Shown piece after piece: positions 63,211 to 63,484 of a stretch of 64,000 bases of DNA. Below the pieces are notes generated by a model, which saw only the letters and a program-made list of their open reading frames with translations, made no database searches and was not told where the DNA came from. The position numbers and the translations under genes were made by a program. Within the stretch, counting starts at the first letter, position 1. Every line of letters begins with the position of its first letter. The DNA is from Acidobacteria bacterium SCN 69-37 (GTDB lineage Bacteria > Acidobacteriota > Vicinamibacteria > Vicinamibacterales > SCN-69-37), in the NCBI GenBank assembly GCA_001724025.1, contig MEDJ01000009.1, positions 306,762-370,761 on the forward strand. The letters are read 5' to 3'.

Positions 63211-63333
63211 GATCACAATCCTTTCGCTCGTCCGCCGTCCGCCGCTGACGCGGCACCGGCGAGACCAGACCTGCATTGATTCATCACCGGCCTCACGCCG
63301 CAGGTCTGAGAGCTGCGGGCCGGTGAGTGCGAT

Positions 63334-63470
63334 AAAAACAAGTTAGAAGTCAGAAGTACGAAGTAAGAAGTTCATGAAAGTGAGAACTGAGAAGTCAGAA
63401 GTTCGAACTTCAAGGTTCTCACTTCCAACTTTCCGTCACTTCTTACTTCGTACTTCTGACTTCTAACTTG
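63334..63470 (-). terminator. Very long family A hairpin (33-nt perfect arms) followed by T5 on the transcribed strand, between rpsK and rpoA
   Basis: Arm 63339-63371 (CAAGTTAGAAGTCAGAAGTACGAAGTAAGAAGT) is the exact reverse complement of 63438-63470. The inner region is also partly palindromic. AAAAA at 63334-63338 gives UUUUU after the stem on the minus strand. Confidence 0.6.
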
Positions 63471-63484
63471 TCCCCAGCTGTTTC

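Follow-up and report, generated by a model that had tools for sequence, protein, structure and literature searches.

The ribosomal-protein operon of Acidobacteria bacterium SCN 69-37 raises the question of what stands between rpsK and rpoA when rpsD, the gene of ribosomal protein S4, is missing from its place there, and what this arrangement means for the genes that follow. In the stretch analysed here (64,000 nt of contig MEDJ01000009.1, hereafter the window), the minus strand carries, in this order, rpsM (partial), rpsK, a spacer of 274 nt, rpoA, a spacer of 48 nt and rplQ. A preliminary description, made from the letters alone, had remarked that rpsD is absent between rpsK and rpoA, and comparison with ~140 related loci, which read rpsK-rpsD-rpoA, bears this out. 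On balance, the evidence leans towards a reading in which the 274-nt spacer consists of two unrelated RNA elements, a long hairpin and a leader of rpoA, brought up against rpsK by a lineage-specific deletion of rpsD; the hairpin would serve as a co-transcribed intercistronic stem-loop, and the leader would control rpoA-rplQ. The elements of the operon are as follows.

Upstream of rpsK, minus strand: rpsM (partial)
63485..63904, minus strand: rpsK, ribosomal protein S11, 139 aa (supported by the open reading frame and by the Pfam Ribosomal_S11 domain of the identical protein from L081-L090)
63472..63484, minus strand: linker after the rpsK stop, 13 nt, GAAACAGCUGGGG, probable deletion junction
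63338..63471, minus strand: palindrome of GAAGTNN heptamers (family A), 134 nt
63334..63338, minus strand: U5 tract directly 3' of the hairpin
63208..63330, minus strand: conserved 5' leader of rpoA, 123 nt (covariance model and covariation)
62236..63210, minus strand: rpoA, alpha subunit of RNA polymerase, 324 aa
62200..62228, minus strand: family A heptamer array with a single arm, in the 48-nt spacer between rpoA and rplQ
61603..62187, minus strand: rplQ, final gene of the operon, encoding ribosomal protein L17 (194 aa)

The letters of the spacer are as they had been described, including its length, the hairpin arms, the U5, a second hairpin and the Shine-Dalgarno sequence. Its GC content dips to 0.47, compared with ~0.67 in the flanks and the genome, and an RNA of 286 nt spanning it is predicted to fold at -145.4 kcal/mol (z = -11.2). 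The array in the rpoA-rplQ spacer (62200-62228) stops immediately ahead of the ribosome-binding site of rplQ.

The part of the spacer next to rpoA is a candidate pseudoknotted leader, the elements of which are the following.

63326 to 63317, minus strand: P1, 5' strand
63316 to 63312, minus strand: invariant GCAGC
63308 to 63300, minus strand: pseudoknot, 5' strand, CAGACCUGC
63292 to 63284, minus strand: P1, 3' strand
63274 to 63266, minus strand: pseudoknot, 3' strand, GCAGGUCUG
63265 to 63230, minus strand: P3 hairpin, variable, GC
63225 to 63219, minus strand: Shine-Dalgarno sequence GAAAGGA
63210 to 63208, minus strand: AUG of rpoA

For the analysis of this region, ~110 nt upstream of rpoA were aligned from the window and 61 relatives. 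A bulged stem, P1/P2, at 63326-63284 carries the invariant CCCGCAGC and GCGGGAGG, and the 9-mer CAGACCUGC of its apical loop pairs with the downstream GCAGGUCUG, giving an H-type pseudoknot. P1/P2 was recovered by RNAalifold with 9 compensated pairs, and pair counting found 97.2% of its cells paired against 32-45% in slid controls, while the pseudoknot helix was 99.6% paired, with compensatory changes at 5 of its 9 pairs; none of 500 shuffles matched the observed value on any measure. In a model-based alignment of 76 sequences, which included loci outside the training set, pairing reached 97.4% in P1/P2 (10 covarying pairs) and 99.7% in the pseudoknot (5 covarying pairs), and P3 displayed a swap from CG to GC (33 versus 22 sequences). 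Taken together, the 15 nested and 9 pseudoknot pairs had 94.7-97.2% of cells paired and 14-21 pairs with compensatory change. The second bulged hairpin that had been noticed before the Shine-Dalgarno sequence is indeed present, at 63284-63326; it is not an accessory hairpin, however, but P1 of this conserved leader, which a single sequence could not have revealed.

A covariance model of the leader gave one strong match per locus, always ending at the start of rpoA, in 71 of the 80 relatives; two independently fetched loci (L091 and L092) matched as well, and nothing comparable was found elsewhere in 741 kb. The leader of the window itself scored 75.1 bits (E = 1.5e-24). The element combines two properties of a structured 5' leader, a structure backed by covariation and a constant place upstream of the ribosome-binding site of one gene. 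No match to Rfam 15, with Alpha_RBS, the S4 and L17 leaders and L17DE among its families, reached the gathering score in the window, and at E <= 10 the leader had only a noise match at E = 9; the far-sub-threshold Rfam matches of the long hairpin (a miRNA precursor, MtlS) were taken as the generic noise of long hairpins. The leader remained beside rpoA after rpsD had gone, and it is therefore an element of rpoA-rplQ rather than of S4, a distinction that the natural loss of rpsD makes visible.

Leaders of S4 upstream of rpsD or rpsM (in Bacteroidia, Clostridia, Flavobacteria and Fusobacteriales) and of L17 upstream of rplQ (in Actino- and Proteobacteria) have been described in other phyla, while a survey of leaders lists none upstream of rpoA (PMC7247131). 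Like the S4 site of E. coli (Rfam Alpha_RBS), the present element is a covarying leader with a pseudoknot that lies beside a ribosome-binding site in the same operon; unlike the S4 and L17 leaders, it stands upstream of rpoA, is unrelated to them in sequence and architecture, and has no match in Rfam 15. L17 is the only ribosomal protein encoded downstream, and by the logic of that survey it would be the 'only-candidate' ligand (PMC7247131). With a pseudoknot supported by covariation in 76 sequences, the leader is a well-supported candidate for a new structured RNA, seen so far only in Vicinamibacterales. To our knowledge, almost no cis-regulatory RNAs have been characterised in Acidobacteriota, and we know of no leader of rpoA.

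Several smaller observations concern the leader. An upstream open reading frame specific to the window (63283-63212, minus strand; AUG AAU CAA UGC ..., 23 codons, with its stop 2 nt before the AUG of rpoA) begins in the linker between P1 and the pseudoknot; relatives have no start codon there, and it is probably fortuitous. Sequestration of the Shine-Dalgarno sequence by CCUU of the P2 loop was rejected, the pairing being weak and not conserved. Two relatives are natural insertion mutants that could show which spacings the leader tolerates: in L033 (3789-4003) a heptamer hairpin of GGAGATT units sits inside the leader, between P1 and the 3' strand of the pseudoknot, and in L072 (3704-4000) a large repeat block parts the leader from rpoA. 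Nine Vicinamibacterales-like relatives (L009, L023, L029, L034, L056, L069, L070, L079 and L080) have no such leader; most of them have short rpsD-rpoA spacers, and they may have a different leader or none.

Between this leader and rpsK lies the big hairpin, whose parts are these.

63438-63471, minus strand: 5' arm in the RNA
63372-63437, minus strand: inner imperfect palindrome
63404/63405: centre
63338-63371, minus strand: 3' arm in the RNA

Over 33 nt, the stretches 63339-63371 and 63438-63470 are complementary without a single mismatch in inverted orientation, and they form the outer part of an inverted repeat of 67 + 67 nt (63338-63404 and 63405-63471), 84% complementary and with no spacer, which is the longest in the window; the perfect arms and the partly palindromic interior reported earlier are therefore both real. 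The centre reads GAAGTTCGAACTTC (63398-63411). Tandem Repeats Finder (TRF) detected a period of 7 at 63340-63402 and at 63438-63469, the unit being GAAGTNN. Folded alone, the hairpin is predicted at -86.1 kcal/mol (z = -13.8), with an uninterrupted basal stem of 39 bp in a stem of ~60 pairs that has ~40% GC and an AU-rich base. The proposal that it is a substrate of RNase III holds as far as the duplex is concerned, since 39 contiguous predicted pairs would make ideal double-stranded RNA where about 20 bp or more are called for; its cleavage in the cell would follow by analogy.

The descent of the hairpin can be read from the closest relative, L153, in which RpoA is 92% identical, rpsD is present and a family A hairpin occupies the slot after rpsD. 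Because the 3' arm of that hairpin, its flank (UAUCGCA) and the whole leader align with the window, the hairpin of the window is the former post-rpsD hairpin. The arms in L153 are imperfect and those of the window perfect over 33 bp, which indicates recent homogenisation of one arm by the other or selection for pairing. The slot itself, bounded by the rpsD stop and the leader, has significant structure in most relatives (z < -2 in 45 of 58, median z = -3.7), and its hairpin ends at a median of 9 nt ahead of P1, the distance in the window being 13 nt. A second dispersed family of GC-rich hairpins (CGGAGCCCCGAGGCTTCAGCCTCGGGGCTCCG) occurs in the window at 7422-7498, 27502-27626, 28912-28943 and 48415-48445, and short stems of a similar kind, with loops of CTT(T)(C)AG, fill the post-rpsD slot in many relatives (L008, L021, L022, L030, L041, L050 and L065).

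The hairpin is also one of many. The repeat that had been called family A is confirmed: if two mismatches at most are allowed, the pattern GAAGTNNGAAGTNNGAAGT has 32 matches at six intergenic loci of the window against 0.02 expected (a quick GC3 gene caller, which is noisy, was used only to confirm that the copies are intergenic). Besides the two in the operon, the loci are the following.

461-569: family A palindrome between convergent genes
38837-38946: family A palindrome between convergent genes
48449-48530: family A array
49205-49244: single family A array beside a canonical GC-rich terminator

What the six loci share over 64 kb is the unit, not the overall sequence or length; the palindromic copies measure 109, 110 and 134 nt and differ in their interiors. 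No target-site duplications or direct repeats flank these three copies, and neither end of the big hairpin carries a GTAG or CGTC tag. Because of the missing duplications, the varied lengths and interiors and the lack of a tag, the hairpin is neither a miniature inverted-repeat transposable element (MITE) nor a classical repetitive extragenic palindrome (REP). At 548-590, the right arm of the palindrome 461-569 supplies the final ~8 codons (..NRKSEVRS*), with the stop codon, of a minus-strand gene that ends at 548 and whose native 3' end the repeat has replaced.

On the scale of the order, 702 kb of Vicinamibacterales DNA contain 145 arrays of period 7, compared with 29 of period 8, 14 of period 9 and 3 of period 6; the 145 arrays fall into 87 unit types, and at least 50 of them have an inverted partner nearby. 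When the hairpins of the operon were scored by fold-based measures, stems of at least 20 bp were found in every spacer.

rpsM-rpsK spacer: 5/44 loci
rpsK-rpsD spacer: 17/71 loci
rpsD-rpoA spacer, the part upstream of the leader: 30/73 loci
rpoA-rplQ spacer: 24/78 loci
250 nt after rplQ: 41/74 loci

These hairpins are often 7-periodic, with species-specific units (GAAGCCA, GGTGAAT, GGAAGAC, CAGCTNT, GTTCAAA and others), and usually end just ahead of the next Shine-Dalgarno sequence. The big hairpin is one copy of an order-wide class of heptamer-array hairpins, not a device specific to this locus.

Several known repeats invite comparison. REPs, defined as imperfect palindromes of 20-40 bp with a GTAG or CGTC tag, and REPINs are abundant intergenic palindromes for which roles in mRNA stabilisation and transcription attenuation have been proposed (PMC3733652). 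Like the REP, BIME and REPIN elements of Enterobacteria, Pseudomonas and Stenotrophomonas, the copies described here are intergenic palindromes, often within operons or between convergent genes, and REPINs, as inverted doublets, also form long hairpins. Unlike REPs, which are tagged, near-identical and associated with a transposase (RAYT), they have untagged heptamer arms of variable number and sequence, reach 134 nt and comprise 87 unit types. MITEs are of uniform length and are marked by terminal inverted repeats and duplicated target sites, whereas family A copies have no duplications and differ in length and sequence. Tandem heptanucleotide repeats are also known from cyanobacteria as short tandemly repeated repetitive (STRR) sequences. 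Closest in period are the TAACTGA heptamer arrays of Beggiatoaceae, cyanobacteria and Bacteroidetes, for which a 7-nt register of slippage has been proposed (PMC4679880), and which are likewise intergenic, lineage-wide and present in ribosomal-protein operons. The present arrays share with them a tandem period of 7 nt, an intergenic position and a lineage-wide excess. TAACTGA arrays consist of one directly repeated unit just upstream of start codons, with 1 of 170 sets inverted (PMC4679880), whereas here there are many unit types, at least a third of the arrays are paired in inverted orientation into long hairpins, and these typically stand just past stop codons. No description of such heptamer hairpins was found in the literature on Vicinamibacterales, and the combination of tandem heptamers with pairing into long hairpins appears to be undescribed. 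Soil Acidobacteria fill intergenic space with abundant long hairpins of tandem heptamers in many sequences. This matters for the processing of mRNA, the prediction of terminators and the quality of assemblies in bacteria that are very common but have rarely been cultured well.

As to what the two elements do, we infer RNA-level roles for both of them by analogy. Transcription of the operon would continue through the spacer; read-through is required because rpoA and rplQ are essential and no sigma-70-like promoter was found in 61400-64000 by a scan confined to the sigma-70 consensus. A dedicated terminator is disfavoured because U-tracts are scarce across the class and because such hairpins lie between genes that are normally co-transcribed. 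As an intercistronic stem-loop, the hairpin RNA would uncouple the fate of the upstream ribosomal-protein mRNA from that of the rpoA-rplQ mRNA, acting as a barrier to 3' exonucleases, as an RNase III site or as both, with at most partial termination at the new U5. The leader, lying at the 5' end of the downstream RNA or close to it, would set the translation or stability of rpoA-rplQ and may do so by binding L17 or alpha, which are candidate ligands by position. RNase III cleaves double-stranded RNA of about 20 bp or more, and intercistronic hairpins of the REP or puf type protect the mRNA segments upstream of them. Correia/NEMIS and ERIC elements, the REP of malE-malF and the hairpin of Rhodobacter puf are all co-transcribed within operons, where they serve as targets of RNase III or stop 3' exonucleases, resulting in unequal expression of the genes; for the present hairpin, the likeness to these systems suggests a comparable mechanism.

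Some points weigh against this account. The linker between P1 and the 3' strand of the pseudoknot is 5-10 nt long, which is short for spanning a stem of 15 bp, and to some extent P1 and the pseudoknot helix may form as alternatives and not together. Hairpins of this kind are so common in intergenic DNA that the one in the spacer may be functionless. The promoter scan was limited to the sigma-70 consensus. U5 tracts are rare in the genome and the textbook terminator at 49250-49280 uses one, so that real termination is possible. Finally, the new site of rpsD was not found, as the search for S4 homologues gave thousands of clusters and the look-ups led to other species; the relocation half of the account is hypothetical.

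The alternative that survives best takes the hairpin for a neutral or selfish repeat, tolerated junk generated by 7-nt slippage and fold-back synthesis, with the leader alone being functional. This is possible, if somewhat doubtful. It would explain why arrays and hairpins of 87 unit types occupy spacers of all kinds and turn over fast between close relatives, why single-armed arrays exist, and why one hairpin has even been inserted inside a leader (L033). It sits less easily with the slot 5' of the leader being structured in 78% of relatives regardless of sequence, or with hairpins that end precisely short of the next Shine-Dalgarno sequence, and the 33-bp perfect arms, kept despite divergence from L153, imply conversion or selection for pairing.

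The U5 tract leads to a second alternative, already raised in the preliminary description as an attenuator, in which hairpin and U5 act as a dedicated intrinsic terminator that stops a set fraction of transcripts after rpsK, tunes alpha and L17 relative to the upstream ribosomal proteins, and evolved after rpsD had left. On the minus strand, UUUUU (63338 to 63334) immediately follows a very stable stem; with only nine T5/A5 runs in the whole 64 kb, another of which belongs to the canonical terminator, the tract is confirmed as more than a trivial outcome of composition. The window has GUUUUUA where L153 has G-CCGUA, which makes the tract lineage-specific, and as a derived state it could be adaptive. 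A stem of over 60 bp with ~40% GC and an AU-rich base is, however, far from the short (about 5-14 bp), GC-rich stem of canonical terminators; the tract 3' of it comprises just five U, which in the predicted fold can be sequestered in G·U pairs with the upstream GGGGA. Among operon-internal hairpins, U-tracts are almost absent (four or more T among the following 8 nt in 5/71, five or more in 1/71). Nor is the tract conserved in the orthologue of L153 or placed at the end of a transcription unit, since the essential rpoA and rplQ follow with no promoter detected, and a consensus terminator scan, limited to short stems, did not call the hairpin. A dedicated attenuator is therefore unlikely, although a leaky terminator in this lineage is possible. 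The attenuator and RNase III site of E. coli rplL-rpoB is a precedent for uncoupling the levels of RNA polymerase subunits from those of ribosomal proteins within one transcript, and the spacer resembles it and rho-independent terminators in having a stem-loop and U-tract between ribosomal-protein and polymerase subunit genes; it differs from such terminators in a stem ~5 times too long and AU-rich and in a short U-tract not conserved in orthologues. Elsewhere in the window, at 49205-49280, a textbook GC-rich terminator with a U-tract (GGCCGGCGGTCGAAAGGCCGCCGGCC UUUUUCUU) serves a minus-strand gene and is directly followed by a single-armed family A array; canonical terminators and repeat hairpins coexist in the source genome.

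A terminator combined with an independent rpoA promoter inside the spacer would reconcile the strong hairpin and U5 with essential genes downstream, and a semi-conserved UCGCA just 5' of P1 might correspond to the start of a transcript or to a site of processing. This is very unlikely, as no -35/-10 match was found in 61400-64000 by the sigma-70 scan, and the gap of 13 nt between hairpin and P1 would force the promoter into repeat arms that lack conservation from one species to another; the separate rpoA promoter suggested earlier finds no support.

The absence of rpsD was checked against related loci. RpoA places the window in Acidobacteriota, order Vicinamibacterales, with 77-89% identity to 80 species representatives, and in all 72 of these relatives' loci with both genes visible the rpsK-rpoA gap measures 734-1084 nt and holds an ordinary S4 gene of 209 aa; S4 is present in 76 of the 76 loci that reach far enough upstream. 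A scan of metagenomes of the Joint Genome Institute (JGI) with the leader-core pattern yielded 80 further loci, with rpoA directly downstream in 64 of 67 testable cases; in 55 of 57, rpsD was the gene immediately upstream. Partial matches by chance or a poor assembly account for the exceptions: the two without rpsD are spurious pattern matches, and those without rpoA (L120, L122 and L155) are partial or chance matches, L122 lying within a DprA-like coding sequence. Loci reached through three S4 proteins (P0006, P0038 and P0133) came from other species and had the canonical order throughout. In the 64-kb window no S4 coding sequence was detected (best tblastn E = 0.49), nor was there one in the 5.9 kb further upstream that are seen in L081 (secY-adk-map-infA-rpmJ-rpsM). 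The source lineage is alone among ~140 Vicinamibacterales loci in having lost rpsD from the operon.

The exact RpsK protein of the window was found on 19 contigs, and the ten that were compared all read rpsK-274 nt-rpoA, with spacers 100% identical and flanks up to 3% different. Family A units, a repeat type that can mislead short-read assemblers, flank rpsD in relatives and might have collapsed in the assembly graph so that rpsD was skipped, but such an artefact is extremely improbable when exactly the same 274-nt junction recurs in ten contigs, some of them 50 kb to 1 Mb long, that stem from no fewer than three projects and represent different assemblers and two strain variants. Since these independent assemblies share an identical spacer, the absence of rpsD is biological.

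The genome must carry an S4 gene at some other place. In Firmicutes and cyanobacteria it is common for rpsD to lie apart from the alpha operon; within Vicinamibacterales this is unique among the ~140 loci. The letters around the junction suggest how the gene may have left. The linker opens with GAAAC, like the rpsK-rpsD spacer of L001, and in the three closest relatives that bear rpsD (L001, L153 and L144) the rpsK stop is followed after 8-11 nt by a family A unit, (C)GAAGTT; the post-rpsD hairpin of L153 begins with AAGTTAGAAGT, as does the hairpin of the window. Probably rpsD was excised by recombination between short direct (C)GAAGTT repeats flanking it, which would produce the exact junction of the window, that is, the rpsK stop, 15 nt and AAGTTAGAAGT. 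A second copy of S4 would have had to exist before the deletion. The locus offers a concrete and datable case in which an essential gene has left an operon that is among the most conserved in bacteria, with a plausible repeat-mediated mechanism.

A wider reading, which must be regarded as speculative and rather unlikely, would join all these elements. Hairpin and leader would be a two-part post-transcriptional module across Vicinamibacterales, in which an RNase III cut frees the rpoA-rplQ mRNA and the leader is a new autoregulatory site for L17 or alpha; the heptamer palindromes would be a new class of repeats, self-renewing by 7-nt slippage and fold-back synthesis with no transposase, whose scattered units would bring about the excision and relocation even of essential genes such as rpsD. 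If this were true, the leader would be the first riboregulator dedicated to a core subunit of RNA polymerase.

Repeats of other kinds are present in the window. At 23323-23362 and 61550-61595, perfect palindromes of the GTAG type (..CGTAGGG[G/A]GGCGACGCATGCGTCGCC..CCTACG..) straddle gene junctions; their central GCATGC provides an ATG, and the arm encodes the N-terminus, MRR(P/L).., of the adjacent gene, which is a plus-strand gene at 23342 in one case and an SLT_2 gene on the minus strand at 61573 in the other. These palindromes resemble classical REPs that double as donors of start codons. The longest tandem array of the window, at 55728-55822, is a single-armed array of 95 nt (GTCGGTA/GCCGGTA, 13.6 copies) right after a family C hairpin (GGGGCTGAAGCCCCAGGGCTCCG). 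A third hairpin family, with units of the AGGCTGG/GGAAGG type, is found at 37646-37822 and at 60452-60517, where perfect arms of 26 bp lie between the convergent genes of a MacB/FtsX-type permease and SLT_2.

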